Source of the DNA: a virus
Lineage: Duplodnaviria > Heunggongvirae > Uroviricota > Caudoviricetes
Length of the DNA: 19,618 nucleotides
Virus record (IMG/VR): IMGVR_UViG_2684622669_000001
Location: 1-19,618 of that record
Reading direction: 5' to 3' (one strand)
Positions 1 through 19,618 of this stretch are shown here, in pieces. The notes beneath the pieces were generated by a model. It did no database searches, was not told the origin of the DNA, and was given only the letters and a program-made list of their open reading frames with translations. Numbering within the stretch: position 1 is the first letter of the stretch; each line of letters starts with the position of its first letter. The translations under genes and the position numbers were made by a program.

Positions 1-1
1 C

Positions 2-1473: not shown

Positions 1474-1576
1474 TTATTACAAAAGCCATTCCCTACAGAG
1501 TGGCTTTGATAATGGCTTATACCCTACACGGGATAACTTAACTGATATCCCTTTTAACGGATAAACGGAGCCAACA

Positions 1577-1819: not shown

Positions 1820-1821
1820 AC

Positions 1822-2262
1822 ATGGCGCGCCCAACAAAGTATCAAGAGGCGTATGCCGAACAGGCACGCAAACTGTGCTTGCTGGGCTACACCGATGCAG
1901 AGCTTGCTGATTTCTTCGAAGTTAGTGAGTCAACTATTAACAAGTGGAAGCTTGATTATCCTGAGTTTTCGGAGTCCATAAAAAAGGGTAAGGCCGTCGC
2001 TGATGCAGAAGTTAGTGACCGTCTTTATCAACGCGCTATGGGCTTCGTGGCTCCAGACATCGATATTCGTGTTATTGAAAACAGAATTGTCGAAACTCCG
2101 CTTGAGAAGTATTACCCGCCTGATACAACCGCCGCCATCTTCTGGCTTAAGAACCGACAGAAGGATAAATGGCGCGACAAGGTTGATCACGAGCTAACAG
2201 GCAAAGACGGCGGCGCAATCCAGATTGAAACATCACCGATGAGCACTCTATTCGGAAAATGA
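1822..2262 (+). CDS. Terminase small subunit (Sf6 gp1-like)
   Basis: 146 aa. The N-terminal HTH-like segment and the C-terminal ...GKDGGAIQIETSPMSTLFGK match the Sf6-type small terminase as I recall it. The stop overlaps the terL start (ATGA). Confidence 0.85.
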   Translation: MARPTKYQEAYAEQARKLCLLGYTDAELADFFEVSESTINKWKLDYPEFSESIKKGKAVADAEVSDRLYQRAMGFVAPDIDIRVIENRIVETPLEKYYPPDTTAAIFWLKNRQKDKWRDKVDHELTGKDGGAIQIETSPMSTLFGK

Positions 2263-3674
2263 CCTCGATTAATCCTATCTTTGAACCGTTCATTGAGGCG
2301 CATCGCTACAAAGTCGCCAAAGGCGGTCGAGGTAGCGGTAAGTCATGGGCAATTGCGAGACTGCTTGTTGAAGCGGCGCGTCGTCAGCCAGTGCGTATTC
2401 TCTGCGCTCGTGAACTGCAAAACAGTATCAGCGATTCGGTAATCCGGTTGCTTGAAGACACCATCGAGCGTGAAGGGTATACGGCTGAGTTTGAAATTCA
2501 GCGCTCCATGATTCGTCATCTCGGAACGAATGCTGAGTTCATGTTCTACGGCATCAAAAACAACCCGACGAAGATTAAATCGCTCGAAGGCATTGATATC
2601 TGCTGGGTGGAGGAAGCGGAAGCGGTAACGAAGGAATCATGGGATATCCTGATACCAACCATCCGCAAGCCATTTTCCGAAATATGGGTGAGCTTCAACC
2701 CGAAAAACATCCTCGACGATACCTATCAGCGATTCGTTGTAAATCCTCCCGATGATATTTGCCTGCTGACGGTGAACTACACCGACAACCCGCATTTTCC
2801 TGAAGTTCTCCGTCTGGAGATGGAAGAGTGTAAACGCAGAAATCCGACACTGTATCGTCACATCTGGCTTGGTGAGCCGGTAAGCGCAAGTGATATGGCA
2901 ATCATCAAACGAGAATGGCTTGAAGCTGCAACCGATGCGCACAAGAAACTCGGATGGAAAGCGAAAGGCGCTGTTGTCTCTGCGCATGACCCATCAGATA
3001 CAGGGCCAGATGCTAAAGGTTATGCATCGCGTCACGGTTCGGTAGTTAAGCGCATTGCCGAAGGTCTGCTGATGGACATCAACGAGGGTGCTGACTGGGC
3101 TACTTCGCTGGCAATTGAAGACGGCGCTGACCATTACCTGTGGGATGGTGATGGCGTCGGTGCGGGCCTACGCAGACAGACAACGGAAGCGTTCTCCGGC
3201 AAGAAAATCACCGCCACGATGTTCAAGGGCAGCGAATCGCCATTCGATGAAGATGCGCCTTATCAGGCCGGAGCATGGGCTGATGAAGTCGTGCAGGGAG
3301 ACAACGTCCGCACTATTGGCGATGTTTTCCGCAATAAGCGAGCGCAATTCTATTACGCGCTGGCTGACAGGCTGTATCTGACATATCGGGCGGTTGTTCA
3401 CGGTGAGTATGCAGACCCAGACGACATGCTGAGTTTCGACAAAGAAGCGATAGGCGAGAAGATGCTGGAGAAGCTGTTTGCAGAACTTACGCAGATTCAG
3501 CGCAAATTCAATAACAACGGGAAGCTGGAGCTTATGACTAAGGTCGAAATGAAGCAGAAGCTCGGTATTCCATCTCCTAACCTGGCTGATGCGCTGATGA
3601 TGTGTATGCATTGCCCGGAGTCGGCTGCGCAACCCGACTATTCCAGTTACTCAATTCCTTGTGGTGTAGGTTGA
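2259..3674 (+). CDS. Terminase large subunit (ATPase/nuclease)
   Basis: 471 aa. Walker-A-like VAKGGRGSGKSW near the N-terminus, acidic motif ICWVEEAEAV. Size and position match P22/Sf6-type TerL. Confidence 0.95.
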   Translation: MTSINPIFEPFIEAHRYKVAKGGRGSGKSWAIARLLVEAARRQPVRILCARELQNSISDSVIRLLEDTIEREGYTAEFEIQRSMIRHLGTNAEFMFYGIKNNPTKIKSLEGIDICWVEEAEAVTKESWDILIPTIRKPFSEIWVSFNPKNILDDTYQRFVVNPPDDICLLTVNYTDNPHFPEVLRLEMEECKRRNPTLYRHIWLGEPVSASDMAIIKREWLEAATDAHKKLGWKAKGAVVSAHDPSDTGPDAKGYASRHGSVVKRIAEGLLMDINEGADWATSLAIEDGADHYLWDGDGVGAGLRRQTTEAFSGKKITATMFKGSESPFDEDAPYQAGAWADEVVQGDNVRTIGDVFRNKRAQFYYALADRLYLTYRAVVHGEYADPDDMLSFDKEAIGEKMLEKLFAELTQIQRKFNNNGKLELMTKVEMKQKLGIPSPNLADALMMCMHCPESAAQPDYSSYSIPCGVG

Positions 3675-3675
3675 T

Positions 3676-5874: not shown

Positions 5875-5964
5875 TTAACCCATAACGTGCAATGGCTGTC
5901 TTTATGAGGCCAGGCACCCTATTGCCTTCCGATGGGCTGAACATCGAGTAAACAGGGGTAACAA

Positions 5965-6858
5965 ATGGACCAGATGGCAGAAAACACACCAGAAGTTGAA
6001 ATCGAAACCGACGCGTCAGAGCAGATTCCTGATGATGTCGAACTGGCTGAAGAAGTCGAAACAGAAGATGGCAGTGAGTCCTCCGGCAATGATGCAGAGG
6101 AAGCTACTGAAACTGATGACGACGAATCAGAACAGGAATTCTACTTTGGTGACGAAAAGCTGGATTCGCCAACCAGCGAAGATAGCGCAGAGCATGGACT
6201 GGTAAAACACCTGCGCAAGACGATTAAAGAGAAAGACCGCGAGCTGAAAGAGCTGATGCGTCAGTCTCAGAAACCCGTCGAGCAGCAGCCGGTAATCACT
6301 CAACCACCGAGAATGCCAAAACTGGACGATGAGGACATCGGTTTCGATGAAGAAATCTACCAGCAACGCATGGCTAAGTGGGCAGAGGATAACGGCAAGT
6401 ACCAGCAACAGGAGATGGCTCGCAAGCAGAAGGAGCAGGAGCTTCAGGCTGCCTATCAAGAGCGATTATCCAAATATCAGCAACGTGTTAAGGCCCTCAA
6501 AGTTCCTGGCTATCAGGAAGCTGAGCAGGCCGTACTCGAGGAAATCCCCATCGAGACACAAAACGCGATCCTGTTTGAGTCAGAGAAGCCGGAAATCGTT
6601 GTTCTGGCGCTCGGTCGCAACGCTGAACTGCGCAAGCAACTGGCAGAAGCTACCAACCCCGTAGCAATTGGTCGTCTGCTGGAACGTATCGAATCGAAGG
6701 CCAGAATCATGCCAAAAGCAAAAACCACGGCAGCCACAACCCCGACAGTTAAGGGGAGCAACGGCGCAGTAATCAATAACCTCGACAAACTGAAAGCCAA
6801 GGCGCTGGAAACTGGTGACTGGACGCCGTATTTCGCCGCTAAAAAGGCAAAAAAATAA
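5965..6858 (+). CDS. Scaffolding protein
   Basis: 297 aa (P22 gp8 is about 303 aa). Sits between portal and coat. Highly acidic N-terminus and Q/K/E-rich helical remainder. SD cagggg. Confidence 0.75.
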   Translation: MDQMAENTPEVEIETDASEQIPDDVELAEEVETEDGSESSGNDAEEATETDDDESEQEFYFGDEKLDSPTSEDSAEHGLVKHLRKTIKEKDRELKELMRQSQKPVEQQPVITQPPRMPKLDDEDIGFDEEIYQQRMAKWAEDNGKYQQQEMARKQKEQELQAAYQERLSKYQQRVKALKVPGYQEAEQAVLEEIPIETQNAILFESEKPEIVVLALGRNAELRKQLAEATNPVAIGRLLERIESKARIMPKAKTTAATTPTVKGSNGAVINNLDKLKAKALETGDWTPYFAAKKAKK

Positions 6859-6876
6859 CCTATCGGAGCATTAAGC

Positions 6877-8130
6877 ATGGCTAACCAATTAGCAAAAGAC
6901 CTTGAAATCATGTTCGAAAACTACGTTGAAGGCTTTGAGGCCGCCTGCGTAGTTTCCCGTAACGCTAAAAAATTCCGTCCCGGTGATACAGCAATGCAGC
7001 GAGCAGGTGATGTTCTGTATCGTCAGCAGCATTACCACATGAATATTGAGGAAGGCCTCGACCTCAGCAGCAAAACGCCAACAGCACTGGTTCAGCGCCT
7101 TGTTCCTTCTGTGTTCAAGGAGCCGAAAAACATTCTGTACACTCTGGATGCGCGTGAAATGCGTGACCCGGAACATAAAACTGAAGCTGGTCGCGCCGCA
7201 GGTATGCGCCTTGCTGCACAGATTGACTCTGACCTGATTTCCATGGTCACGCAGCGTGCTACTAACGTGATCACAATGTCTGACTCAACCACAGGTACAC
7301 AGGGCCGTGATTTGTGGAACTGTGCGGCAGGTATTGATGCCACCATGACGGCGATTGGTGTACCTCAGGGTATCAACCGTCGCTCTTTCTGGAACCCCTT
7401 CAACTACAAAGACCTTGCTGGCGAGCTTGGTCACCGTGCCTACGCTCAGGGCGCAACCCTGACAGCATACGAAAAAGCGCAGATCCCTCCGGTTGCTTCC
7501 TTTGATAGCTACAAGACCGATATTTCTGGTCGATTACCGAAAGGAAGCGCTGAATCCTTGACAGTATCAGGCCAACCTGAACACAAGGTTGAAGCGAAAG
7601 ATTTAAATGGTATGCCAGTTGATAACCGACAGGGGACTATTACGGTATCTGCATCTGGCTTGCAGGTTGGTGATGCGTTCACCATTGCCGGTGTGAATTC
7701 CGTACACCAGATCACAAAAGATACCACCGGGCAACCGCAGGTATTCCGTGTTCTGGCTGTTAGCGGAACTACCGTAACAATCTCTCCAAAGATTCTCCCT
7801 GTTGAAAATGCCGATGTTGCGAGTCGTCCATATGCAAACGTCGATGCCAAACCGGCAGCATCAGCAGCAATCACCATTCTCAACAAGAACGCAGCACCTG
7901 CTAACCTGTTCTGGGCTGATGGTTCTGTTGAGCTGATGTACGGCAAACTGGCGTTCCCGACTGGTCAGGGTCCACAGGTAATGACAGCAACCACCGAGCA
8001 GGGCGCTACGCTGATCATGTCTTACGCCTTCGACCACATCAAAGGTGTAACCACTGCGCGTTTCACCACCCTGTACGGTTGCTCTGTACTTGTTCCTGAA
8101 TATACGGGCATCGTTATTGCCGGGCAGTAA
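6877..8130 (+). CDS. Major capsid (coat) protein, P22 gp5-like
   Basis: 417 aa. Segments NAKKFRPGDTAMQRAGDVLY and ILNKNAAPANLFWADGSVELMYGKLAFP parallel P22 coat (KAKKYTPPAASMQRSS..., [26 protein letters not shown]) from memory. SD ggag. Confidence 0.9.
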   Translation: MANQLAKDLEIMFENYVEGFEAACVVSRNAKKFRPGDTAMQRAGDVLYRQQHYHMNIEEGLDLSSKTPTALVQRLVPSVFKEPKNILYTLDAREMRDPEHKTEAGRAAGMRLAAQIDSDLISMVTQRATNVITMSDSTTGTQGRDLWNCAAGIDATMTAIGVPQGINRRSFWNPFNYKDLAGELGHRAYAQGATLTAYEKAQIPPVASFDSYKTDISGRLPKGSAESLTVSGQPEHKVEAKDLNGMPVDNRQGTITVSASGLQVGDAFTIAGVNSVHQITKDTTGQPQVFRVLAVSGTTVTISPKILPVENADVASRPYANVDAKPAASAAITILNKNAAPANLFWADGSVELMYGKLAFPTGQGPQVMTATTEQGATLIMSYAFDHIKGVTTARFTTLYGCSVLVPEYTGIVIAGQ

Positions 8131-8136
8131 TTTTGG

Positions 8137-8157
8137 TGGGGCTTCGGCCCCATTTTT
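8137..8157 (+). terminator. Intrinsic terminator/attenuator after the coat gene
   Basis: tggggc (8137-8142) / ttcg loop / gcccca (8147-8152), followed by ttttt (8153-8157). Begins 7 nt after the coat stop codon. Confidence 0.6.
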
Positions 8158-8171
8158 ATTGGGAGAAGATA

Positions 8172-8360
8172 ATGGCACGAACAATGCTCTATAAGCCGGG
8201 CAACATGATCACCTGTGGTCAGTTTGCTGTCGATTACATCATTGTTGATGACGAAGAAGTTAAATCTCACCTGAAAAAAGGTTGGGTAAAAACTCCTGAA
8301 GAAACCGCAACGAAGCAAAAAGTGGCTAAGGCGGAAGAAGATGGCGAAAACGAAGGGTGA
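8172..8360 (+). CDS. Hypothetical small protein between coat and gp4-like genes
   Basis: The track ORF 8133-8360 is trimmed to the ATG at 8172, which has SD gggagaag upstream and lies after the terminator hairpin. 62 aa; its end overlaps the next gene. Confidence 0.5.
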   Translation: MARTMLYKPGNMITCGQFAVDYIIVDDEEVKSHLKKGWVKTPEETATKQKVAKAEEDGENEG

Positions 8361-8802
8361 TCTCGTTCTAAAGGCTTTACGAAAAGCCGGGCTGTATTCC
8401 AATGCCACGTTGACAGATGCCGACCCTCAGGCAATTGAAGATGCCATTAATGACCTCGAAGACATGATGGCAGCATGGCAGGCGAAAGGTATCGAGCTTG
8501 GATATCAGTTTGCTAATACAGAAAACGGCATCATGCCGTTACCTGACGATGATTCAGGTATCCCTGCATGGGCAAATGATGGCGTCGCTTTGAAACTCGC
8601 TGTGCAAGTGTGCATGGATAACGTCATTCAGCCGTCAGACGCTCTCCTTACCGCTGCTGACAGTGCATATCAAACAATCTGTATCGCTTTAACCAAAATA
8701 CCACCACTTGAGCGGCGAAATGACATGCCTCGCGGTAGTGGTAACAAAAGCGCGTTTACGTGGAATCGGTTTTACATCGAGAAAGATGATCCGAGTACGT
8801 GA
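8341..8802 (+). CDS. Head-completion / tail accessory protein (P22 gp4-like)
   Basis: 153 aa. KTKGDLVLKALRK, ATLTDADPQ, DLEDMMAAW and MPRGSGN parallel P22 gp4 motifs from memory. Synteny supports the call. Confidence 0.85.
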   Translation: MAKTKGDLVLKALRKAGLYSNATLTDADPQAIEDAINDLEDMMAAWQAKGIELGYQFANTENGIMPLPDDDSGIPAWANDGVALKLAVQVCMDNVIQPSDALLTAADSAYQTICIALTKIPPLERRNDMPRGSGNKSAFTWNRFYIEKDDPST

Positions 8803-8811
8803 GGTGAATAA

Positions 8812-10230
8812 ATGCCGATTCAGCAACTTCCGCTTATGAAAGGTGTCGGCAAAGACTTCCGAAACGCCGACTATATCGACTATCTGCCAGTGAATATGCT
8901 GGCTACACCCAAAGAAATCCTCAACAGCAGCGGATATCTTCGCTCATTCCCGGGCATTGCCAAACGTTCTGATGTGAATGGTGTATCGCGCGGCGTCGAG
9001 TACAACATGGCGCAGAATGCTGTTTATCGCGTGTGTGGTGGCAAGCTCTACAAAGGGGAAAGTGAAGTCGGTGACGTCGCCGGAAGTGATCGTGTATCAA
9101 TGGCGCATGGTCGGACATCACAGGCGATAGGTGTTAATGGTCAACTGGTCGAATACCGCTATGATGGCACGGTTAAAACCGTCTCAAACTGGCCTACTGA
9201 CAGCGGATTCACACAGTACGAGTTAGGTTCAGTTCGCGACATTACGCGCTTACGTGGGCGTTATGCGTGGTCAAAAGACGGCACTGATTCATGGTTTATC
9301 ACTGACCTTGAAGACGAATCGCATCCTGACCGCTACAGCGCACAATATCGCGCAGAATCGCAGCCGGACGGCATCATCGGTATCGGGACATGGCGAGACT
9401 TCATCGTCTGCTTTGGTTCATCGACTATTGAATATTTTTCCCTGACAGGTGCAACCACCGTTGGTGCCGCTTTGTATGTCGCACAGCCATCGCTGATGGT
9501 GCAGAAAGGCATTGCCGGAACTTACTGCAAAACGCCGTTTGCTGATTCGTATGCGTTCATCAGCAATCCGGCAACAGGTGCGCCGTCTGTGTATATCATC
9601 GGCTCTGGTCAGGTATCACCAATCGCCAGCGCGAGCGTTGAGAAAATCCTCCGCTCCTACACTGCTGATGAACTGGCTGATGGCGTGATGGAGTCTCTGC
9701 GCTTTGATGCTCATGAGTTGCTGATTATCCACCTTCCTCGCCATGTTCTCGTGTACGACGCATCTTCAAGCGCCAATGGTCCGCAATGGTGTGTACTGAA
9801 AACAGGCTTGTATGACGATGTGTACCGCGCTATCGACTTCATTTACGAAGGAAATCAGATAACGTGCGGCGATAAGCTGGAATCGGTTATCGGCAAATTG
9901 CAGTTCGATATCAGCAGCCAGTACGACAAGCAACAGGAACACCTGTTGTTTACTCCGTTGTTCAAAGCGGATAACGCAAGAGTGTTCGACCTTGAGGTTG
10001 AATCTTCAACTGGCGTTGCGCAGTACGCTGACCGCCTGTTCCTCTCTGCAACCACTGACGGAATCAATTACGGACGTGAGCAGATGATTGAACAGAATGA
10101 ACCGTTCGTTTACGACAAACGTGTTTTGTGGAAGCGAGTAGGGCGCATCAGGAAAAATGTCGGTTTCAAATTGCGCGTTATCACGAAGTCACCTGTAACT
10201 CTGTCTGGCGCTCAGATAAGGATTGAGTAA
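8812..10230 (+). CDS. Tail accessory / hub protein (P22 gp10-like)
   Basis: 472 aa, the same length as P22 gp10. The N-terminus [49 protein letters not shown] is near-identical to my recollection of gp10. SD gaggtga. Confidence 0.9.
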
Positions 10231-10931
10231 TGGCGGATTCGAATCTCAATACACCTGTTATTGTTCAGGCGACGCGGCTCGATACATCAGTCCTTCCACG
10301 CAATATCTTCTCGCAGTCATATCTGCTGTACGTTATTGCACAGGGTGCTGATGTTGGTAACGTGGCTAACAAAGCCAACGAGGCAGGACAGGGCGCTTAT
10401 GATGCACAAGTCAGGAACGATGAGCAGGATGTGATTCTCGATGACCACGATGCAAGAATCACCGCAAACACAAAAGCGATAAATCTCCTTGAGGTCAGGT
10501 TAACAACCGCCGAAGGGAAGATAGTCGTACTGCGTAGCGATGTTGATTACTTGCTGGATGAGGTTATCGATATTCAGGCGCATCTTGTCACTGTTGACAA
10601 AAGACTGGAGGGCGTAGAAAGCGATGTATCTGACATTAAGAGTGATTACGTATCGAAAACCGTAACCGAATCGCAGTCTCTTGCGTCACCACTGAATGTA
10701 AAAACATCATATTCAGTTGATGGAATTCAGGTTGTTGGAGCAAGAAATACCGGATGGACTGCAGCCACAGGTACGCCACTTCTTGGCTCATTCAACGCTA
10801 ACCAGTCATACACTGTCGGCACTACGTACACACAATCCGAAGTCGCAGCTCTCGCTACAGGTTTGCAGCAGGCGCGGCAGCGTATTCTGGCGCTTGAAAC
10901 GGCACTTAGATTACATGGGCTGATTGACTGA
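10230..10931 (+). CDS. Tail needle (P22 gp26-like), trimeric coiled-coil plug
   Basis: 233 aa, the same length as P22 gp26. The N-terminus [39 protein letters not shown] and the C-terminal ...[19 protein letters not shown]... match gp26 from memory. TAATG overlap with the upstream gene. Confidence 0.9.
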
Positions 10932-11386
10932 TGATTACATTCAAACCAACGCGAAACATCGACCTGATAGAAGCAGTCGGAAATCACCCTGACATTATCG
11001 CCGGGAGCAACAACGGTGATGGATACGACTACAAACCTGATTGCCGTTACTTTGAGGTGAACGTGCACGGGCAGTTCGGCGGCATTGTTTACTATCAGGA
11101 GATTCAGCCGCTGACATTCGATTGCCACGCCATGTACCTGCCAGAGGTTCGCGGCTTCAGCAAGGAAATCGGGCTGGCGTTCTGGCGATACATTCTGATT
11201 AACACCACCGTTCAGTGCGTCACATCGTTCGCTGCACGCAAATTCCGCCACGGTCAGATGTATTGCGCAATGATTGGCCTTAATCGTGTAGGAACCATCA
11301 AGAAATACTTCAAAGGCGTGGATGACGTGACGTTTTACAGCGCCACACGCGAAGAACTAATCGACTTCCTGAATCACGGGAGATAG
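10931..11386 (+). CDS. gp14-like virion/ejection-associated protein (by synteny)
   Basis: 151 aa. Occupies the gene-14 position of the P22 order, with a TGATG overlap to the needle gene. Assignment is by position, not by sequence recollection. Confidence 0.6.
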   Translation: MITFKPTRNIDLIEAVGNHPDIIAGSNNGDGYDYKPDCRYFEVNVHGQFGGIVYYQEIQPLTFDCHAMYLPEVRGFSKEIGLAFWRYILINTTVQCVTSFAARKFRHGQMYCAMIGLNRVGTIKKYFKGVDDVTFYSATREELIDFLNHGR

Positions 11387-11388
11387 CC

Positions 11389-12081
11389 ATGTTATATGCA
11401 TTTACGCTGGGCAGAAAACTGCGCGGCGAGGAACCTTATTGCCCTGAAAAAGGCGGGAAAGGTGGCAGTTCTGATAAAAGCGCAAAGTATGCCGCAGAAG
11501 CTCAGAAGTATGCCGCAGACCTGCAAAATAAGCAGTTCAACACCATCATGAACAACCTGAAGCCGTTTACTCCTCTGGCTGATAAGTATCTCGGCAGCCT
11601 CGAGAACTTATCGTCTCTGGAAGGGCAAGGTCAGGCACTTAACCAGTATTACAACTCTCAGCAGTACAAAGATCTTGCTGGTCAGGCTCGCTATCAGAGT
11701 CTGGCGGCAGCGGAAGCAACAGGTGGATTGGGTTCCACCGCAACCAGTAATCAGTTAGCAACAATCGCACCAACGCTTGGTCAGCAATGGCTATCTGGAC
11801 AAATGAACAATTACAACAACCTGGCAAATATCGGTCTTGGCGCTCTTCAGGGGCAGGCAAACGCCGGGCAAACATATGCCAACAACATGAGTCAGATTTC
11901 ACAGCAAAGCGCGGCGCTGGCTGCGGCAAACGCCAACCGACCGTCAGCATTGCAGCAGGGGGTTAGTGGTGCTGCATCCGGTGCGCTTTTGGGTGGTGGC
12001 ATAGCCAGTGCTCTCGAGCTATCAACTCCGTGGGGTGCTGGTATCGGTGCTGGTCTTGGTCTGCTTGGCTCGTTGTTTTAA
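11389..12081 (+). CDS. Ejection (internal virion) protein, P22 gp7-like
   Basis: 230 aa (P22 gp7 is about 229 aa). Q/N/A/G-rich low-complexity protein with a Gly-rich hydrophobic C-terminus (GGGIASALELSTPWGAGIGAGLGLLGSLF). SD gggaga. Confidence 0.7.
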   Translation: MLYAFTLGRKLRGEEPYCPEKGGKGGSSDKSAKYAAEAQKYAADLQNKQFNTIMNNLKPFTPLADKYLGSLENLSSLEGQGQALNQYYNSQQYKDLAGQARYQSLAAAEATGGLGSTATSNQLATIAPTLGQQWLSGQMNNYNNLANIGLGALQGQANAGQTYANNMSQISQQSAALAAANANRPSALQQGVSGAASGALLGGGIASALELSTPWGAGIGAGLGLLGSLF

Positions 12082-12091
12082 GGGGTAATCA

Positions 12092-13441
12092 ATGGCTACG
12101 TGGCAACAGGGTATTAATTCTGGTGGTTTTCTGGCTGGCATCGGTACGCAAAATGAGAATGCGCCAAAGGCAAGCGACATTAACGCAACGCTTGGTCTGA
12201 TCCGCGAAAACAATGAGTTGGCTCGCTCAGGTGCAAATAACGTTGGTCTGACCGCGTTACGTGGTCTGGCTGGAGTTGCTGATATTTATAAGCAGGAACA
12301 GCAACAGAAAGCGATTAATGCGTTCAATAAGGTTCATGCTGATGCATGGGCTTCTGGTGATCCATCGGGACTATTTAAGTTTGCCAAGGAAAATCCAGCG
12401 TTTGTTGCGCAGGCACAACAGGCGTTTTCCGGTCTTAATGAGCAGCAACGCAACGATATGGGCGATTTAGCCATGAGAGCTAACGTCGCTCTTTCTCAGG
12501 GACCGGAAGCCTACAGTAAATTCATTACTGACAACAAGGACAGGTTAAATCGCGTTGGCGCTAATGCTGACTGGATGATTCAGACAGGTATCCAGAATCC
12601 AGAGCAGCTATCACACATGCTGACTACTATGTCTCTCGGTGCGCTTGGACCAGAAAAGGCGTTTGCTGTTCAGGATAAGATGGTTGGTCGCCAGCAGGAG
12701 CAGCAAAGAATTAAAGAAACCATTCGCAATAATGACATGACGAATGCGAGGGCTATTAGGGGTCAGGATCTTTCCTATAAGGCTCAAATGGCAAGACTGA
12801 ATCACGACAAGTATGTGTTTAAGCAGTCACAGGCGGCCCTTGAAAGAGCAGGACAACTTCAGGATATGGATGTTTTGTCTCTTAACTCACAGATAGCAGC
12901 GACGGGAATTGATCCGCTAACCGGTAAAGCTGCAACGTCAGCCAGAATGTCTCAGGCTAAGAGATGGCTTGATGGCAACAATAATTACAACAATGCGTTA
13001 ATTACTGGTGAGCGAGGGATAGAGAAAATTGATTCTTTGCTTGGTAAGAAGGAGCTTGAAGGTATTGGTCGCTTCGAAGGAAGAAATATAGATGGCTTCA
13101 CAAGTGCTGAAGGGCTTGCAAACCGTAATGCGATAGAAGAATTAAAGTCGGGGGCGTTTGTCCAGAACGTGCAGACTATGCGAGGTATGGGTAGCCTCTC
13201 CAATGCTGAAGGCCAAAAACTGGAAAACCTGATCGCGAAACTCGATATAACACAGCCTGAAGAGGTCGTCAGAAAACAGTTATCTGAAATCCGATCGCAA
13301 TATTCTGTATTTCAAAAGGTTGCAGCAAGGGAGGCTGAATCAATGGGATATAGTTCATCAGGTTATGACACATATGTTAGTGAGCGAAAATCAGGAAGCG
13401 ACAGCAATAAGTCCGGTTTCTCGTCTTTATGGGGTGATTAA
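12092..13441 (+). CDS. Ejection protein, P22 gp20-like
   Basis: 449 aa (P22 gp20 is about 471 aa). Position in the operon; SD aagggg. Confidence 0.7.
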
Positions 13442-15609
13442 TGGCTAAAGCATGGAAAGATGTTATCGCTTCTCCACAGTATCAGGCGTTAACTGAAGAA
13501 CAGAAAGCACAGGCTCAAGCGCAATATTTTGATGAGGTTGTTGCCCCTAAGGCTGGTGACAAATGGGCTGAAGCAAGAGATCAGTTTTATGCAGCATACC
13601 CTCCGCCTCAGCAGCAGAAAGAAGAACCATCATTGATGCAACAAGCTGGCGATTGGCTCACTGGTGGTCAAAGTGCAGGGCAAATTGCAGAACAGGCTGG
13701 TCGTGGTCTGGTAAACATACCATTTGACGTATTGCAGGGTGGCGCAAGTCTGATTAATGCAATCAGCCAGGGGCTTGGTGGCCCCAAGGTTTTGGATGAT
13801 GTTTATCGCCCTGTCGATCGACCGACAGACCCTTGGGCGCAAGCCGGTGAAACATTTGGGGGGTATCTCCTGCCAATTGGCACAGCGGCAAAAGCTGCTG
13901 GAGCGACAGCAAAGCTCGCAGGAGACATCGGTTCCGCAGGAAACATGATTGCAGGTTCTCTTGCTGATGCTGCAAATCAGGAGGGCGATTTTGCACAAAA
14001 TGCTGCCATTAATGGTGGTATCAATATTGGTGCTCAGGGGATACTTTCTGGGGCTGGAAGGATCTTAACCTCTAAATCACCTCAAGTTCTTGGTGGCGGG
14101 GCAATAAATTCCGCTGCTGATGTTTCGAAAATGGCAAAGTCTGGTACAGGAAGAGAGATTATTGCCAGACAGTCAGCTAATGTGTCAGACGAAATAGCAA
14201 AAGCAGCAGATACTGCTGGAATAGATATCAACGCATTAACTCCTGGCATGAGATCAGGTAGTCGTGGTCTTGCTCAGGCGGAGGGGATTCTGGCGTCAAA
14301 GCCCGGAATTACACAGGATGCACACACCAAAGCATTCAGTGAAATAGAGTCGAAATTTAACTCAGCATTGGATGAGTTTGGGGCTGAAGCAGGAACTGCA
14401 TCAGAAAAAAGTGCAGCCATAAAACAAAGGGTTTTGGCAAGTATTGATAAAATGAAAAATTCAGAAAAGGCCGCATGGGATAGCGTCCGCTCCACGATTC
14501 CTGACGCAAAGGCCAGAATGTCAAACCTGAACGCTACAATTCAGGGTGATATTTTGGCTGGCATGCCGCTAACTCCTGAGATGAAACAATTCGCATCTGC
14601 TTATGCTAAAACTGGTAAAAAAGGAATCACGTTTGATGCCATGAAGGCATGGCGAAGTAAACTTGCTGACGCAGAGCAGAAGTATATAAGGTCTGGTGAG
14701 GCAAATACGGCAAGGCGCATGGCTGAGCTTCGTGATGCAGCAACGGAAGATATGCGCATAATGGCTCAAAATGGCGGTTTTCTTGATGACTGGCAAAAAG
14801 CTAATGATCTGTCAAAGGCAAGATTTACAGCACAAGAACAGGCTGAAGCAGCGTTTGGTAGAGACCTTGCAACTGATCAGTTGGTAACTAATGGATCTAA
14901 GGCGTTACAGGGTTCAGCAAAAAGTGGAACAGGTCAGTTCCATAAAATAATAAGCGCCCTACCTGAGTCGGAACGCGCGCCAGCAATTGCATCAATATTA
15001 CAAGATGCAATGTCGCAAGGGGTACGCGGAGGTAAGTCTGAAGAGGCTGGAATTAAGCATATCGCGACTATTCTTACCCCACAAAACGTGAAGGCAATTA
15101 GTCGATATTCTCCAGAACTTGGCAGGATTACAAGTTCATACGGAGAACTTGCACGAGCAGCAACAAAGCCACTTCGATATGTTGAACAGACAGGGCGATC
15201 TATGCCAGCCATTAGCACTCTTGAGAATGGCCTTCATCCAGTTTTAGAGAGCGCATTGTCTGGCGCTTTTAGAACTACTGGCACTATCGCAGGGTTCTCT
15301 GGAGGAGGCGTTATTGGAGCAATAGCGGGTGGCGCTGCAGGTGGGGCAATTGATGCAATGGCAAAAGGAGCGATAGCGAAATTATCCGCAACTAGAAGCG
15401 GTCGTTACGCTATTGAAAAGGCTGTTCAAGAGGCAACAAAGGCAGTTAAGGTTGGGGCAAGTGATGGCGCATTAGCGGCGGCGGAACGCAGATTTATGGC
15501 AAATAAGGCCGCCGTAAAAGCAATACGCGAGGCACTAGGAAACGAAGAGTTCCAGCGTTTAGCAAGAGCTGGAATTGTGGCATCGCTAAGCGGAATGGCA
15601 CAGGAGTAA
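13441..15609 (+). CDS. Ejection protein, P22 gp16-like (longer than P22 gp16)
   Basis: 722 aa, last gene of the virion operon, TAATG overlap with the upstream gene. Gly/Ala-rich hydrophobic segment near the C-terminus ([30 protein letters not shown]). Confidence 0.7.
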
Positions 15610-15939
15610 TTAGTCATCCATGGATGGATTGAGCTTATCTCGTGTTGATGTGGCAATTTTCCCAACATTTTTCAACCAAGATTTTAAGAAGGATATGTCG
15701 TCCTTAATATCATGAATATCCTCATTCTTTATACGATCAACCTTATCCTCTAAGCTCTCTATAGAACGCTCAATGCTAGACAGAGAGATTTTTAAGTCCC
15801 CTTGCTCACGTTCCAGTGAGGATTTGAGAGCACAATATTCGTTTTCTAGAATTCCTATTTTTTTTGTTAGAGAGTGCATTCGATACTCATACACCAAACC
15901 AGAAACGACTAATGCAGCCAACAGAAACCATTCAAGCAC
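15610..15939 (-). CDS. Hypothetical membrane-anchored coiled-coil protein (accessory gene)
   Basis: The track ORF 15610-16155(-) is trimmed to the in-frame GTG at 15937-15939, which has a perfect SD aaggagg 5 nt upstream. Predicted product has an N-terminal hydrophobic helix (LEWFLLAALVVSGLVYEY) then a heptad-like charged region. Stop abuts the gp16-like stop. AT-rich. Confidence 0.5.
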   Translation of the reverse strand: MLEWFLLAALVVSGLVYEYRMHSLTKKIGILENEYCALKSSLEREQGDLKISLSSIERSIESLEDKVDRIKNEDIHDIKDDISFLKSWLKNVGKIATSTRDKLNPSMDD

Positions 15940-15969
15940 ACCAACCTCCTTAGTTTTGAACAGGATACC

Positions 15970-16335
15970 ATGAAAAAAGTTAACATTGGAAACGTACCAA
16001 AGATGCTCGTTCCGCTCTTTGAGAGCGGTACAATTGTGTTTTGTAGAGACTTTCCAGAATGGCAACGCCTGCATCAAAAACTTGGCGTTGACGTGCATGA
16101 CTCGGACGCCAACGGAGCGTCTCATACAATGAGTAGCGAGAATGGTGTTTTGCATGTGATAGGCGTGTTCAATGGCAAACTATCTACTATTGCCCATGAG
16201 TGCGCTCACATGGCATTCGATATCTGCTCAAGGGTAGGTGTTGATGTTGAACTAGGAAGAGCCAACGAGACTTACTGCTACTTAATGAGCAGGCTTGTTG
16301 AGTTCTGCGAGCGACATATCAAAAAGCCGGAGTGA
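15970..16335 (+). CDS. Hypothetical HExxH-motif protein (putative minimal zincin-like metallopeptidase)
   Basis: 121 aa, SD agga 4 nt upstream of ATG. Contains IAHECAHMAFD (HExxH) with a downstream Glu in NETYCY, the gluzincin spacing. Stop codon sits in the loop of a terminator hairpin. Confidence 0.6.
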   Translation: MKKVNIGNVPKMLVPLFESGTIVFCRDFPEWQRLHQKLGVDVHDSDANGASHTMSSENGVLHVIGVFNGKLSTIAHECAHMAFDICSRVGVDVELGRANETYCYLMSRLVEFCERHIKKPE

Positions 16336-16343
16336 CCCGGCTT
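16324..16343. terminator. Bidirectional terminator between convergent accessory genes
   Basis: aagccgg (16324-16330) / agtgac / ccggctt (16337-16343). Flanked by aaaaa upstream and a T-rich stretch downstream, so both strands get a U-tract. Confidence 0.5.
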
Positions 16344-16348
16344 GATTA

Positions 16349-16528
16349 TTACTTTTTGCTGTCTGGAGTTCGCTTATCCAATACCCAGCCATGACCTGGC
16401 TTTGTTGTTGGTGGAAGCCTTTCGTTGTCCTTGACGGTTGCAAAATTGTCTTTCTTACCGCCGCGTGGGCCAACTTCTTGGTATATTCCGCCGTTTTTTC
16501 CTGTGTTTTCACCTGGTTTTTTCGCCAT
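16349..16528 (-). CDS. YjzC-like small protein (tentative family call)
   Basis: The track ORF 16349-16543(-) is trimmed to the second ATG (16526-16528), which has SD gagg 6 nt upstream. The 59-aa product MAKKPGENTGKNGGIYQEVGPRGG...ERLPPTTKPGHGWVL fits the YjzC pattern as recalled. Confidence 0.45.
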   Translation of the reverse strand: MAKKPGENTGKNGGIYQEVGPRGGKKDNFATVKDNERLPPTTKPGHGWVLDKRTPDSKK

Positions 16529-16610
16529 GATATACCTCAACATATACCCGTTATTGGGCGATTAAATATTGATCTCATTTTATAAGTAGTCAATATGGTC
16601 CAAAAAAGGC

Positions 16611-16645
16611 AAAAATTAACCCACCTTCAGGTGGGTTTTTTGTTT
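16611..16645. terminator. Bidirectional intrinsic terminator overlapping the 3' end of the Mnt-like gene
   Basis: aacccacc (16618-16625) / ttca / ggtgggtt (16630-16637), then tttttgttt on + and aattttt on the minus side. The Mnt-like stop codon (16627-16629) is in the loop. Confidence 0.6.
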
Positions 16646-16947
16646 AGCAGTTCTCTCAACTTTTCGTTCTGCTCTCTGAACTTTTCCTGTATTTCTTTTT
16701 GCATGGCGATAACCTGGGCTTGAAGTTGAACTAGCGCATCAACATTTAGCGGAACCGAGACGCTGTTGATTTTATCTGCTATTTCCCCGAGTGTATTTTC
16801 TGCATTCAAGGCATCTTCCAGTATCTGAACAATCTCTGAGTTCATTGATCTGCCGTTACGTTTGGCTCGTTCAGCTATAGCATCCCGCATTCCTGCAGGA
16901 AGCCTGATATTGAACCTATCCATTTCATGACTAGGGAACTTGCTCAT
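16627..16947 (-). CDS. Mnt/Arc-family ribbon-helix-helix repressor (Mnt-like paralogue 1) with extended C-terminal coiled coil
   Basis: 106 aa. FNIRLPAGMRDAIAERAKRNGRSMNSEIVQILEDAL matches the Arc/Mnt RHH motif (P22 Mnt: FNFRMPMEVREKLKFRAEANGRSMNSELLQIVQDAL, from memory). SD gagg. Divergent from the Arc-like gene. Confidence 0.8.
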   Translation of the reverse strand: MSKFPSHEMDRFNIRLPAGMRDAIAERAKRNGRSMNSEIVQILEDALNAENTLGEIADKINSVSVPLNVDALVQLQAQVIAMQKEIQEKFREQNEKLRELLNKKPT

Positions 16948-16989
16948 ATGACCTCAACGTAAAGATGTTCGCTAAACAATAGCACCAAC

Positions 16990-17029
16990 TTGACATCAAA
17001 ATAAATGGTGTTAAATTGGTTCTAGAACC
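16990..17029 (+). promoter_or_regulatory. Candidate rightward promoter (-35 TTGACA, -10 TAAATT) with overlapping palindromic operator
   Basis: TTGACA at 16990-16995, a 16-nt spacer, then TAAATT at 17012-17017. Perfect 12-bp palindrome GGTTCTAGAACC at 17018-17029, inside a 21-bp near-palindrome AATTGGTTCTAGAACCAAGTT (17014-17034). Confidence 0.45.
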
Positions 17030-17058
17030 AAGTTGGCATCATTGTGGGAGGATTACTT

Positions 17059-17232
17059 ATGAAAGATGTGCTTTACACAGGTCGTAAAAGTCAAAGTTTC
17101 CAGCTTCGTTTGCCAGCGCGAATGAAGGAGGAGATTAGACGTGTTGCTGAAATGGATGGAATTTCTATCAACTCTGCGATTGTGCAGCGACTGGCTAAAA
17201 GCCTGAGAGAGGAAAGAGCTAATGCCCAGTAA
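17059..17232 (+). CDS. Arc-like ribbon-helix-helix repressor
   Basis: The track ORF is trimmed to the ATG at 17059, with SD gggagg 7 nt upstream. 57 aa. FQLRLPARMKEEIRRVAEMDGISINSAIVQRL parallels P22 Arc (FNLRWPREVLDLVRKVAEENGRSVNSEIYQRV, from memory). Confidence 0.75.
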   Translation: MKDVLYTGRKSQSFQLRLPARMKEEIRRVAEMDGISINSAIVQRLAKSLREERANAQ

Positions 17233-17312
17233 AAATAGTGAAGCCCGGCAGTGCGTGAACACAAACCGGGCCTCTATGTCAGTAACCGTATGCAAGGAAA
17301 CTAACATGAATA
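17233..17312 (-). ncRNA. Candidate sar-like antisense RNA opposite the antirepressor ribosome-binding site (hypothetical)
   Basis: Minus-strand -10-like hexamers just inside the ant-like start (TACAAT = + 17312-17317; TATAAT = + 17328-17333). Minus-strand GC hairpin 17243-17272 followed by a U-rich stretch in the arc-ant spacer. Analogy to P22 sar RNA. Confidence 0.25.
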
Positions 17313-17932
17313 TTGTAGCAAAATCAGATTATAACTTCCACGGAGTTGAATTGGTGCCCACCCGTGATATGCATGGTGTTTGGTTTACATCATCTAATAT
17401 TGCATCTGCACTTAAATACGCAAATAGTCGTGCAGTAACAATGATTTATAACAAGTATAGCGATGAGTTTAGCGCCGGAATGACTCAGGTACTCGAAGTG
17501 AGTACCTCAGGAAATTATCGCAAAAAAGTGCGTGTTTTCTCACTACGCGGTGCCCACCTAATCGCGATGTTTGCTCGCACTCAGGTAGCCAAAGAGTTCC
17601 GCCGCTGGGTGCTGGATATTTTGGATCGGCAGGCAGAATGCTCACCGATTGCAAAACAGTTTACTGACGAAGAACTGGTTAATCTCTGCTACTTACAATT
17701 GTGGATGGAGAAGAGTCAACAAATGTGCAAACACATCTACCCAGGAATGAAGCAAATTGGTTCTGAGCTTTCAGGAAGGATTTACGATATTGCATATGAG
17801 ACTCGCTACATGTCAGAAGAAACCAAGAAATCACTTCTTCGTGAAATGAAGAATCTTGATACCAACAATTTTGTCGTAAAGAACGCTCAGCCAATGCTGG
17901 CAAAACTGCGCGGCGAGGAATGGATTCATTGA
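17306..17932 (+). CDS. Antirepressor-like protein (Bro-N / P22 antirepressor N-terminal-like domain)
   Basis: The track ORF 17222-17932 is trimmed to the ATG at 17306, with SD aagga 6 nt upstream. 208 aa. ...FSLRGAHLIAMFARTQVAKEFRRWVLDIL... is typical of Bro-N/antirepressor N-domains. Position after arc mirrors P22 arc-ant. Confidence 0.7.
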   Translation: MNIVAKSDYNFHGVELVPTRDMHGVWFTSSNIASALKYANSRAVTMIYNKYSDEFSAGMTQVLEVSTSGNYRKKVRVFSLRGAHLIAMFARTQVAKEFRRWVLDILDRQAECSPIAKQFTDEELVNLCYLQLWMEKSQQMCKHIYPGMKQIGSELSGRIYDIAYETRYMSEETKKSLLREMKNLDTNNFVVKNAQPMLAKLRGEEWIH

Positions 17933-17950
17933 TTGGTGCGCCGGACTGCG

Positions 17951-18026
17951 CAAAAAGAAAACCGCCAGTGTGCTGCTGGCGGCCTATGTCACACACTTAC
18001 TACCACATAAGGAATGCCTAATGACT
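17951..18026 (-). ncRNA. Second candidate antisense RNA with its own minus-strand terminator (hypothetical)
   Basis: Stem ccgccag (17962-17968) / ctggcgg (17976-17982). On the minus strand it is followed directly by GTTTTCTTTTTG (rc of 17951-17961); the + strand has no T-tract. Minus-strand promoter-like GTGACA-17 nt-TACATT inside the first codons of the 18021 gene. Confidence 0.25.
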
Positions 18027-18746
18027 TTTAAGAATGTAGCAAACATCGGATCCGTTGTCACGGATAAAACCATTGACAGCCAAAGTCTTCTGATGATGGT
18101 TAATGAAGCTCGCAAGTTATGTGGAGAGCCATCAGTACGTAACAACAAATTCATCGAGAAAATTGAGGATGAATTGGAAGGCGAGACCTACACAAAAAGT
18201 GTAGGTCGGAAAAACGGGGCTGACATTGATGTTATCTCCATGACTATCAAGCAGGCGCTTCGTGTTGCTGCTCGCGAATCTAAAGCAGTTCGCCGAACAC
18301 TTGTAGACAAACTTGAAAGTATGCAGGAAGCGCACATTAAAAGCGGTAAATCAGCGAGTGGACTTGTTGAGTATCGTCAAGCGCGAACATTGAAAATGAC
18401 GGTTGAAGCTGTTACCAATCTGTTCGATCTGATGCCAAATCTTGCGCCGGAGGCAAAGCAGACAGCGGCAGCAAGTATAATCAACCCGCTCGTTGGTTTT
18501 AATGCAATACCTCTTCCGGCAATAGAAGAGCATTACTACTCAGCAGGGGAGGTTGCAGAGCAGCTTGGAGTAACGGCCAACAAGATTGGTCGCATTGCTA
18601 ACGCAAACAACCTCAAAACTGAGCAGTACGGGAAGTTCTTCCTGGATAAATCTGCGCATTCCAGCAAACAGGTGGAAGCGTTCCGCTACAATGAGGAAGG
18701 TGTTAAAGCACTACAACACCTGATTCATGGGAGTAATGTTGCATAA
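18021..18746 (+). CDS. Second antirepressor-like / phage regulatory protein (Rha/ORF6N-like N-terminus, KilAC-like C-terminus; tentative)
   Basis: The track ORF 17970-18746 is trimmed to the ATG at 18021, with SD aaggaa 6 nt upstream. 241 aa. The N-terminal region (TIDSQSLLMMVNEARKLCG...) is Rha/ORF6N-like and the C-terminal region (YYSAGEVAEQLGVTANKIGRIANANNL...) is KilAC-like. Domain calls are from memory. Confidence 0.55.
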   Translation: MTFKNVANIGSVVTDKTIDSQSLLMMVNEARKLCGEPSVRNNKFIEKIEDELEGETYTKSVGRKNGADIDVISMTIKQALRVAARESKAVRRTLVDKLESMQEAHIKSGKSASGLVEYRQARTLKMTVEAVTNLFDLMPNLAPEAKQTAAASIINPLVGFNAIPLPAIEEHYYSAGEVAEQLGVTANKIGRIANANNLKTEQYGKFFLDKSAHSSKQVEAFRYNEEGVKALQHLIHGSNVA

Positions 18747-18967
18747 TGGCAAAGAAAAAATATGGCATTATGCCGCCAAGAATCAAAGGAAGAGCCAGGG
18801 TAAAAGGCGATGCTGGAAGGTATCACATTCTTGGAGTTCTGTGGCATGAGAGAGCTTTAATTTTAAGTAGACCTCATGGGTACATTGAAAAGGTATCTAT
18901 AGATAGAGTAGAGATTCTTCCCCTTACACCTGAAGAAGAAGAAACGTACGGACTTTTTGATAACTAA
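18746..18967 (+). CDS. Hypothetical small basic protein, translationally coupled to the upstream gene
   Basis: 73 aa. Start ATG overlaps the upstream stop (TAATG). Followed by a strong terminator. Confidence 0.45.
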   Translation: MAKKKYGIMPPRIKGRARVKGDAGRYHILGVLWHERALILSRPHGYIEKVSIDRVEILPLTPEEEETYGLFDN

Positions 18968-18973
18968 CCAGCT

Positions 18974-19004
18974 AAACCCGCTTAATCGCGGGTTTTTTCT
19001 TTTC
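18974..19004 (+). terminator. Intrinsic terminator ending the rightward accessory operon
   Basis: aaacccgc (18974-18981) / ttaatc / gcgggttt (18988-18995), followed by ttt and cttttc. The minus-strand Mnt-like stop codon (18982-18984) is in the loop. Confidence 0.6.
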
Positions 19005-19239
19005 TAAGGATATCAGCCGCAACTTCTTTTACTCGCTCCGAGATTAATGAGGCCAACCTCTCTTCTTCATCACGATACCCGCTTACAGGTGATGGTTTGG
19101 AGAGTGATTCTTCCATCGTAGCCACAATTTCGGAATTGATAGACCTGTTATTCATTTTTGCACGCTGCTTAATCTTAGCGTGCAACTCGTGCGTAAGCCT
19201 CAAGTGGAACTGCGCCTCATCGTATTTGCTGTACATCAT
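18982..19239 (-). CDS. Mnt-like ribbon-helix-helix repressor (paralogue 2, closest to P22 Mnt)
   Basis: The track ORF 18982-19320(-) is trimmed to ATGATG at 19234-19239, with SD gagg 5 nt upstream. 85 aa. QFHLRLTHELHAKIKQRAKMNNRSINSEIV...SKPSPVSGYRDEEERLA parallels P22 Mnt (...NGRSMNSELL...SKPSPVTGYRNDAERLA, from memory). Confidence 0.8.
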   Translation of the reverse strand: MMYSKYDEAQFHLRLTHELHAKIKQRAKMNNRSINSEIVATMEESLSKPSPVSGYRDEEERLASLISERVKEVAADILRKEKTRD

Positions 19240-19371
19240 CAATGCCTCACCAAATGGGTGGAATGGCATCGTAAAACCTACTGTACAAATCAACAATCGT
19301 ACCATTTCGGTATGCAACAAACATCAACCGTAGCCATGCTGCGGCGATTCCTTGTATCTGGAGCAAATTAA

Positions 19372-19530
19372 ATGACAGACATTACAGCCAATGTGATCGT
19401 ATCGATGCCTTCGCAACTCTTCACTATGGCGCGTTCTTTTAAAGCTGTAGCTAATGGCAAAATTTATATCGGTAAAATTGATACTGACCCAGTAAATCCA
19501 GAAAACCAGATTCAGGTTTATGTAGAGAAC
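19372..19530 (+). pseudogene. Tailspike gene, N-terminal head-binding domain only (interrupted by IS2)
   Basis: [53 protein letters not shown] matches the conserved P22/Sf6/HK620 tailspike N-terminus. After codon 53 the reading frame enters an IS end and no longer resembles tailspike. Confidence 0.85.
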
Positions 19531-19618
19531 TGGATTTGCCCCTATATTTCCAGACACCTGTTATCACTTAACCCATTACTGGCCTGCTGCCGCAGATATT
19601 CCCGTGGCGAGCGATAAC
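19531..19618 (-). mobile_element. IS2 (IS3 family) terminal inverted repeat and 3' end of the transposase gene, partial (continues beyond window)
   Basis: TGGATTTGCCCCTATATTTCCAGACACCTGTTATCACTTAACCC matches the IS2 terminal inverted repeat as recalled. The minus-strand translation of 19545-19618 gives ...[24 protein letters not shown], typical of an IS3-family OrfB C-terminus. Confidence 0.8.
19542..19618 (-). CDS. IS2 transposase OrfB C-terminal fragment (partial, 5' part outside window)
   Basis: Minus-strand frame ends with stop TAG (+ 19542-19544) after ...[26 protein letters not shown]. This ending is characteristic of IS3-family transposases. Confidence 0.7.

Follow-up and report, generated by a model that had tools for sequence, protein, structure and literature searches.

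The 19,618-nucleotide stretch of viral DNA examined here (the window; positions 1 to 19,618 of IMG/VR record IMGVR_UViG_2684622669_000001) contains a 111-bp intergenic interval, positions 16948-17058, with divergent genes for an Mnt-like and an Arc-like protein on either side, as identified from open reading frames and Pfam matches. We propose that this interval is probably an immI-type bidirectional control region of a P22-like Escherichia coli prophage, in which it would act as the on/off switch of an antirepressor gene. The word "probably" grades the best explanation as a whole, i.e., an immI-type region with two promoters, an array of boxes for the Mnt-like repressor, and repression from that array. 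The anatomy of the sequence, its conservation and its covariation with the Mnt-like allele were observed directly.

A P22-like antirepressor locus

The assignment to the immI type is based on the P22-like gene order around the locus and on the presence of a Pfam Arc domain in both regulators. The mnt-like gene (16627-16947, minus strand) encodes a 106-residue ribbon-helix-helix (RHH) repressor with an N-terminal arm, the beta-strand DRFNIRLP and a long C-terminal helix (Pfam Arc, 1.6e-20), and the arc-like gene (17059-17232, plus strand) encodes a 57-residue RHH protein with the beta-strand SFQLRLP (Pfam Arc, 8e-12). The original prediction, made from the sequence alone, had named this divergent Mnt-like and Arc-like pair, and the Pfam matches bear it out. 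A Shine-Dalgarno sequence for the arc-like gene, GGGAGG, can be read at 17046-17051 (plus strand), 7 nt ahead of the ATG at 17059. The controlled cargo is the antirepressor gene (17306-17932, plus strand), whose product has Bro-N and P22AR_C domains and which is annotated as an antirepressor gene in E. coli 55989.

The window matches E. coli prophages with 99.4-99.6% identity in 13 of 5426 complete E. coli genomes, including that of E. coli 55989. The copy in E. coli 55989 (99.4% identical) is a P22-like prophage adjoining tRNA-Arg and intS, and its genes run in the order capsid, needle and ejection genes, then mnt-like, arc-like, ant and tailspike. As in the immI region of P22, the mnt-like gene is divergent from an arc-ant operon and lies in the late region of a P22-like phage.

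Two predicted divergent promoters

To describe conservation we used 23 distinct control regions that stand beside a repressor with the strand DRFN(I/V)RLP, collected from phage records, from one genome per species and from viral contigs. Among them are Salmonella phage Oslo and Klebsiella phage KP12, whose DNA agrees with that of the window at about 76% identity across the region. Megablast against phage records matched only the body of the repressor gene, in Shiga toxin (Stx) phages, and the control region was found in the "distant" search mode.

The rightward (Pant-like) promoter has the -35 hexamer TTGACA at 16990-16995 (plus strand), found by the promoter scan and invariant in 23 of the 23 relatives, and the extended -10 element TGTTAAATT at 17009-17017 (plus strand), in which the TG at 17009-17010 is invariant and the hexamer TAAATT at 17012-17017 nearly so. 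The spacer is 16 nt, and the promoter has 10 of 12 consensus matches in addition to the TG. Thus, the earlier claim of a consensus -35 and a -10-like hexamer between the divergent starts holds. The start of arc-ant transcription is predicted at position 17024 (plus strand), only from its distance of 7 nt past the -10 hexamer. The promoter scan listed 2 sites in the window against 2.5 in shuffled sequences, which is no excess; the rightward promoter is credible because its TTGACA, TG and -10 show little or no variation among the 23 relatives. At the sequence level, the arrangement is that of P22 immI, with a sigma-70 promoter leading into arc-ant and a conserved symmetric dyad just past its start.

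The mnt-like gene is most likely driven by a weaker leftward (Pmnt-like) extended -10 promoter. Its predicted -10 element, TGCTATTGT at 16976-16984 (minus strand), is suggested by the sequence and its conservation: the 23 relatives all agree in the TG and in positions 1, 2 and 6 of the hexamer, positions 4-5 vary (a TAnnnT pattern), and TACAAT or TATACT stands at the corresponding place in other alleles. The promoter scan did not list this promoter, because its -35 is poor; its transcript would start near 16969 (minus strand). The upstream regions of the two predicted divergent promoters overlap.

A motif (C/A)AATG(G/A)TG lies just 5' of the -10 (about 17003-17010 in the window) in most alleles of any Mnt-like or Arc-like type. 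Its TG is that of the extended -10 element, and the remainder could represent either the leftward -35 or a common binding site. A LexA-controlled antirepressor promoter was considered and rejected, since 16948-17058 contains no SOS box CTGT-N8-ACAG at up to one mismatch.

Conserved boxes and dyads

The columns that are invariant in the relatives are TAGCACC.ACTTGACA (16980-16995), A17003, T17006, the TG at 17009-17010, AAA.TGG (17013-17019), TAG (17023-17025), CCA (17028-17030) and TTG (17033-17035). The sequence TAGNACCAA occurs three times in 19.6 kb, where 0.48 occurrences are expected, and all three lie inside 16980-17031, at 16980-16988 (plus), 17023-17031 (plus) and 17016-17024 (minus).

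Three dyads or parts of dyads can be drawn through these columns. Dyad R, TAG-A-ACC-AAGTT-GGC (17023-17037), is a candidate operator at the position of P22 Omnt, at about +4 to +14. Its core, ACCAAGTTGG(C/T) at 17027-17037, consists of two 3-bp boxes and a 5-bp A/T-rich linker; the relatives read ACCAAGTTGGT or even TACCAAGTTGGTA, and the conserved unit among them is an 11-bp dyad, ACC-N5-GGT. The centre of dyad R, ACCAAGTTGGC, is at 17032, 15 nt past the -10, as it is for P22 Omnt. Inverted 3-bp boxes around a 5-bp linker, here ACC-AAGTT-GGC at 17027-17037 (GGT in the relatives), are the arrangement of AmrZ/Mnt/Arc-type operators. Dyad L, TAG-C-ACC-AACTT-GAC (16980-16994), is a partial copy inside the invariant block 16980-16995, and its right half is the -35 hexamer. 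Its core, ACC-AACTT-GAC (16984-16994), is 43 bp upstream of dyad R, and 16981-16997 and 17024-17040 agree as a direct repeat at 14 of 17 positions. Half-dyad M, GTT-AAATT-GGT (17010-17020), lies over the -10; only its right box (GGT) is good, with TGG at 17017-17019 invariant. The inverted repeats that the original prediction had seen to bracket the palindrome, CCAACTTG (16985-16992) and CAAGTTGG (17029-17036), are present, but they are the cores of dyads L and R rather than brackets.

The boxes in the window are spaced by 8, 9 and 8 bp with alternating orientations, and sister alleles have four boxes at exactly 8-bp spacing. The regular 8-bp arrays in the sister alleles suggest that several dimers could be aligned along the promoter. 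A search of the whole window for ACCAANTTGGT with up to two mismatches gave 8 matches against 8.6 expected, and the only one that is interestingly placed is at 19249-19259.

The 16-bp palindrome

The last two of the TAGNACCAA copies, which are inverted, form a perfect 16-bp palindrome, TTGGTTCTAGAACCAA (17016-17031), at about -8 to +8 of the rightward promoter. It is made of two inverted copies of TAGAACCAA with the central TA in common. The original prediction had described a perfect 12-bp palindrome, GGTTCTAGAACC (17018-17029), which is indeed present as the core of the 16-mer, so that only the length was understated. Perfect palindromes of at least 12 bp number 7 in the window against 5.3 expected. 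A perfect 16-bp palindrome is expected 0.35 times per window and appears at least once in 29% of Markov simulations, and by our own arithmetic the expectation for one inside the 111-bp intergenic region is about 0.002. The palindrome alone is statistically weak, and it is non-random only by its placement and conservation.

If the palindrome alone were the complete operator, one Mnt-like tetramer would occupy TTGG...CCAA about 17023/17024 and CAAGTTGG would be incidental. The palindrome is perfectly symmetric, unique in the window and placed exactly over the predicted start at 17024, where a repressor could block the promoter, as had been suggested earlier; its outer TTGG and CCAA are invariant in the relatives, as is the asymmetric TAG; the perfect 16-mer also occurs in phage Oslo and in locus L089, which are separate lineages; and a wider 40-bp imperfect dyad has the same centre. 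However, the inner positions 17020-17022 and 17026-17027 vary among the relatives, in which TTCTAGAA of the window reads TTTTAGAA, TTGTAGAA, TTCTAGTA, AGCTAGTA, CACTAGAA or TTGTAGCA. Next to the central T-A, which never changes, the three inner pairs are mismatched in 4, 5 and 6 of 17 sequences, compensatory changes are not in excess (pair covariation 0.135 vs 0.144 in shuffled controls), and G17025 is constant while its symmetry partner C17022 is variable. Because the inner positions drift without compensation, the perfect symmetry is confined to certain lineages (E. coli clade, Oslo, L089) and is not a conserved feature.

The geometry also disagrees with an operator made of the palindrome alone. 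Its spacing, GGT-N6-ACC, departs from the 5-bp linker of AmrZ-type operators, which is found in AmrZ, in the P22 Omnt core TCC-N5-GGA and in the other alleles. The other alleles all centre their palindrome 8-9 bp further downstream, where the window has one too, and the invariant TTG at 17033-17035 and the upstream copy would be left unexplained. We regard the palindrome as an unlikely candidate for the complete operator. It is probably not the operator unit, and is better read as two neighbouring boxes in a larger array of repressor boxes. Of the earlier proposal that the palindrome is an operator for an RHH repressor, the control region and the location are retained; the palindrome as the unit is not, in view of the drift of its inner pairs and of the dyad at the Omnt position.

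Action of the palindrome in RNA, as a hairpin in a read-through transcript that would serve as an attenuator, processing site or terminator, appears scarcely credible. The RNA of 17000-17062 folds at -17.5 kcal/mol (z = -3.7 vs shuffles), but the predicted start lies inside the palindrome, so that the arc-ant mRNA would have only its 3' half. There is no T-run after the palindrome, the terminator scan lists nothing at the site, and the paired positions covary no more than the shuffled controls cited above. Rfam, any sar-like RNA included, gave no match at gathering score, the weak matches being noise, and a bidirectional terminator at 16618-16637 lies upstream.

The dyad follows the Mnt-like allele

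We compared the control regions of other mnt-like alleles. A Mnt-like strand ERFTVRMP is accompanied by the dyad GCATCA-N3-TGATGC, DKFTVRFP by GGCAA-N-TTGCC, EKFVVRFP by GGCAT-A-ATGCC, DKFMLRFP by GTCAC-G-GTGAC, and the P22-like Mnt strand PVFNLRMP by CCCCAC-G-GTGGGG. In each allele that is not of the P22 type, the main dyad is centred 14-16 nt past the -10 and an imperfect copy lies over the -35, 43-44 bp upstream. A third copy of the dyad is found 16-18 bp upstream of the main one in the alleles measured (ERFTVRMP, EKFVVRFP and DKFMLRFP). The R-N-R allele, to which the window belongs, keeps its boxes with four Arc-like strands (SFQLR, VFNLR, QFSLR and RFTLN). Conversely, the Arc-like type SFQLR occurs with three of the Mnt-like types given above and KTTLRY with two, and the dyads differ.

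The protein alignment narrows the determinant further. The window protein and the alleles of Stx phages (K-N-R), locus L079 (K-V-R) and locus L006 (K-T-R) are identical over residues 20-106; the four differ only in residues 1-19, which make up the N-terminal arm and the beta-strand, yet each has its own dyad. The DNA similarity to Stx-converting phages is 96% over 16620-16901 and stops at 16901, just inside the gene. The identical 20-106 bodies and the end of the DNA similarity at 16901 indicate that the dyads change with 19 residues of the adjacent repressor and with nothing else. Codons 1-19 (16891-16947, minus strand) can be called the specificity cassette of the mnt-like gene, being the only part that differs among the four otherwise identical alleles.

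Just past the beta-strand codons, a 12-bp palindrome, TTCCTGCAGGAA (16890-16901), coincides with the recombination boundary of the 19-codon cassette. Other E. coli genomes carry the opposite recombinant, with the same N-terminus, operator and arc and a different C-terminus.

Since the dyad sequence follows the Mnt-like and not the Arc-like allele, the Mnt-like protein is the likely binder. As in AmrZ/Mnt/Arc-type operators, the box sequence follows the beta-strand residues across the allele series, with K-V-R paired with GGC. The analogy supports ACC-N5-GGT as the operator unit of the R-N-R allele, because the K-V-R and K-T-R alleles use GGC-N5-GCC, which is the AmrZ half-site and spacing; GGT-N6-ACC as the primary unit is disfavoured, although one extra base pair would be possible.

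Alternatively, the Arc-like protein could use the palindrome as its operator and turn off the promoter of its own gene, in the manner of P22 Arc. The target of P22 Arc is the corresponding pair of promoters, where it reads TAGA boxes in inverted orientation (PMC2724298), and the TCTAGA of the palindrome holds two overlapping TAGA boxes. We listed all 3-N5-3 dyads in 13 control regions grouped by Arc-like type; none was common to loci of one type, and no other Arc-like site was found. Among the K-M-R alleles, the sequence of the promoter spacer is not tied to the Arc-like type either. However, the invariant parts of the palindrome persist with the four Arc-like recognition strands listed above, SFQLR loci with other Mnt-like alleles have nothing similar at the palindrome position, and in P22 Oarc lies in the promoter spacer with its boxes 5 bp apart and no overlap. 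We consider it very unlikely that the Arc-like protein is the binder of the palindrome.

The window has a second mnt-like RHH gene at 18982-19239 (minus strand), encoding 85 residues with the strand AQFHLRL; it stands head-to-head with the tailspike gene (start at 19372). The C-terminal half of its product (SKPSPVSGYRDEEERLA...) matches P22 Mnt, unlike the 106-residue protein. A dyad CACC-AAATG-GGTG, of the ACC-N5-GGT type, lies at 19248-19260, 9 nt before its start codon. This gene and its dyad could be left over from a second immI region, or the gene could be under cross-regulation.

That this second gene supplies the repressor for the palindrome is highly improbable. Its C-terminal SKPSPVSGYR does align with P22 Mnt, and in P22 a Mnt of such a type binds at the Pant start. 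On the other side, its recognition strand is unrelated to the observed covariation, Oslo and Klebsiella phages retain the palindrome region and have no gene of this sort in the 6 kb covered, and the dyads track the N-terminus of the adjacent 106-residue protein.

A model for repression by the Mnt-like protein

We propose that a strong rightward promoter, starting near 17024, would drive the arc-like and ant genes, and that the Mnt-like RHH protein would bind an array of short ACC/GGT-type boxes, each beside an A/T-rich linker. The array would be made up of one complete dyad, ACC-AAGTT-GG(C/T), from +4 to +14, a GGT box over the end of the -10, and a partial dyad, ACC-AACTT-GAC, over the -35. 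The palindrome would then be the box pair that flanks the start, with inverted TAGAACCAA units that share the TA, and no separate operator. By analogy with AmrZ and P22 Mnt, each dyad may be bound by a dimer of dimers. Mnt-like tetramers would fill the boxes from about -14 to +14 together with the partial dyad at -40 to -30, and occupancy of the -35, -10 and +1 would exclude RNA polymerase from the rightward promoter, so that arc-like and ant would be silent in the lysogen. The upstream dyad, lying in the spacer of the leftward promoter, could provide autoregulation of the mnt-like gene. We infer promoter activity, start sites, binding, stoichiometry and the direction of regulation from the sequence.

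An AlphaFold2 single-sequence model of the 106-residue protein has an overall predicted local distance difference test score (pLDDT) of 66 and helices at residues 18-30, 36-62 and 69-102, the last with a pLDDT of about 83. The model shows both RHH helices, and the long C-terminal helix 69-102 is compatible with an oligomerisation domain, and with no more than that.

Several observations weigh against this model. The window has a C at 17037, where the other distinct relatives collected all have T or A; with this base dyad R is weaker, and the main dyad spans 9 bp instead of 11 bp (ACCAAGTTGGT). At site M most "pairs" are G-T, so that it has no true palindromic symmetry. None of the three downstream boxes varies, so conservation alone cannot choose between the pairings GGT(17018)-ACC(17027) and ACC(17027)-GGY(17035). 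Boxes overlap the -35 and -10, and the promoter alone may account for some of the conservation. Many of the 23 relatives share common ancestry, and their invariance is partly inheritance. The dyad listing yielded no operator for the Arc-like protein, whose site could overlap the boxes. As to the oligomeric state, the only hint comes from the single-sequence model, whose confidence is moderate (pLDDT 66).

If the model is correct, the prophage has an immI region of a new immunity specificity, which would decide which superinfecting or co-resident phages switch on the antirepressor. The locus is a new specificity of the known immI kind and not a new kind of regulation, and its interest in that respect is modest. 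The natural allele series, in which the body is fixed and residues 1-19 are swapped together with their own boxes, is a ready-made test of how the RHH beta-strand reads DNA; it takes further the classic swap experiments on Arc and Mnt and the structure of AmrZ, and is the most useful by-product of the analysis. A more far-reaching version is tentative at best. The cassette would be a mobile immunity module whose swappable unit is the first 19 repressor codons plus the control region; its natural alleles would give a beta-strand-to-DNA code (R-N-R to ACC, K-V-R and K-T-R to GGC), a multi-box array (-35, -10, +1 and +10) would replace the single Omnt of P22, and the 16-bp palindrome would be a genuine extra pairing mode.

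Neighbouring features

The mnt-like gene ends at a terminator-like hairpin, AACCCACCTTCAGGTGGGTT (16618-16637), which is bidirectional, with T-runs on both strands, and which would also block rightward read-through into the control region. The arc-ant spacer (17233-17305) is at the place of the antisense sar RNA of P22; it contains a stem GCCCGG...CCGGGC followed by a T-rich run on the minus strand, and Rfam returned only a sub-threshold symR match for it (minus strand, E = 0.33). The motif AAAAA(T/C)AGCGAAGCCC recurs 3' of arc in other alleles. Another perfect 12-bp palindrome, TATCTATAGATA, at 18894-18905 inside a small open reading frame (18746-18967), is at chance level for its length.

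The mnt-like/arc-like/ant cassette is also found within the tail gene clusters of unrelated phage types (loci L002, L003, L004 and L006), which indicates that it behaves as a mobile moron and not as a P22-specific feature. Its neighbours are tape-measure or minor-tail genes in Oslo and Stx phages and baseplate genes in E. coli LWY24.

Comparison with known systems

The closest model is the immI region of P22, with which the locus shares the gene order, the orientation and the place between ejection and tailspike genes, two RHH regulators, a consensus TTGACA promoter into arc-ant with a dyad 15 nt past the -10, and, going by the predicted leftward -10, overlapping divergent promoters (PMC2724298). 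In P22 (X01916), the Pant hexamers TTGACA and TATATT are 17 nt apart, and this spacer is taken up by the Arc operator, which has TAGA boxes in inverted orientation; the centre of Omnt (AGGTCCACgGTGGACCT) is 15 nt past the -10, and Pmnt overlaps Pant in the opposite direction. P22 Arc represses both promoters (PMC2724298). The window differs in that its candidate operator, ACC-AAGTT-GGY, is unrelated to the P22 Omnt sequence AGGTCCACGGTGGACCT, which is absent, with ACCAAGTTGGC as the local dyad instead. The spacer of the window promoter, TCAAAATAAATGGTGT, has no inverted TAGA Arc boxes (TAGA-N5-TCTA), and the palindrome is unlike the P22 operators in a comparison with X01916, in agreement with the original prediction. 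The window also has partial dyad copies over the -35 and -10, which P22 is without; its predicted leftward -10 is outside the rightward -35, whereas that of P22 is within the spacer; and the predicted starts are about 55 bp apart, compared with about 37 bp in P22. The 106-residue protein aligns with P22 Mnt only in the RHH part (37% identity overall), and its C-terminal domain is unrelated to that of Mnt, so that the Mnt-type tetramerisation C-terminus is missing.

Among solved structures, the best matches of the 106-residue protein are AmrZ (top), Arc and Mnt. AmrZ of Pseudomonas aeruginosa (PDB 3QOQ) binds amrZ1 as a dimer of dimers on two 3-bp boxes with a 5-bp A/T-rich linker, and the beta-strand residues Lys18, Val20 and Arg22 recognise two GGC half-sites with 5 bp between them, GGC-N5-GCC (PMC3325190). 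AmrZ is of similar size (108 residues) and layout, with an N-terminal arm, an RHH domain and a C-terminal oligomerisation domain, the last being putative in the window protein, and the sister K-V-R and K-T-R alleles use the identical GGC-N5-GCC. Unlike AmrZ, which is a chromosomal global regulator, the window gene is a phage immunity gene; its R-N-R strand goes with ACC/GGT boxes, and the two C-terminal domains have no sequence similarity.

The epsilon34 genome paper names this region the "ant moron" and describes it as highly variable among P22-like phages: sixteen genomes had ten types, and homologues of mnt, arc and ant were often present (PMC2629481). The present locus is one more type. 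That paper compares gene content only, and operators and the present allele series are not described in it (PMC2629481). Our literature search found the work on P22, epsilon34 and AmrZ, and nothing on the present allele or on the immI region of E. coli 55989.

MetJ offers a further parallel. Its RHH dimers bind tandem 8-bp metboxes, which are direct tandem palindromes, and require a corepressor. Arrays of short boxes at about 8-bp spacing are also seen in the sister alleles, whereas the boxes of the window alternate in orientation with spacings of 8, 9 and 8 bp.

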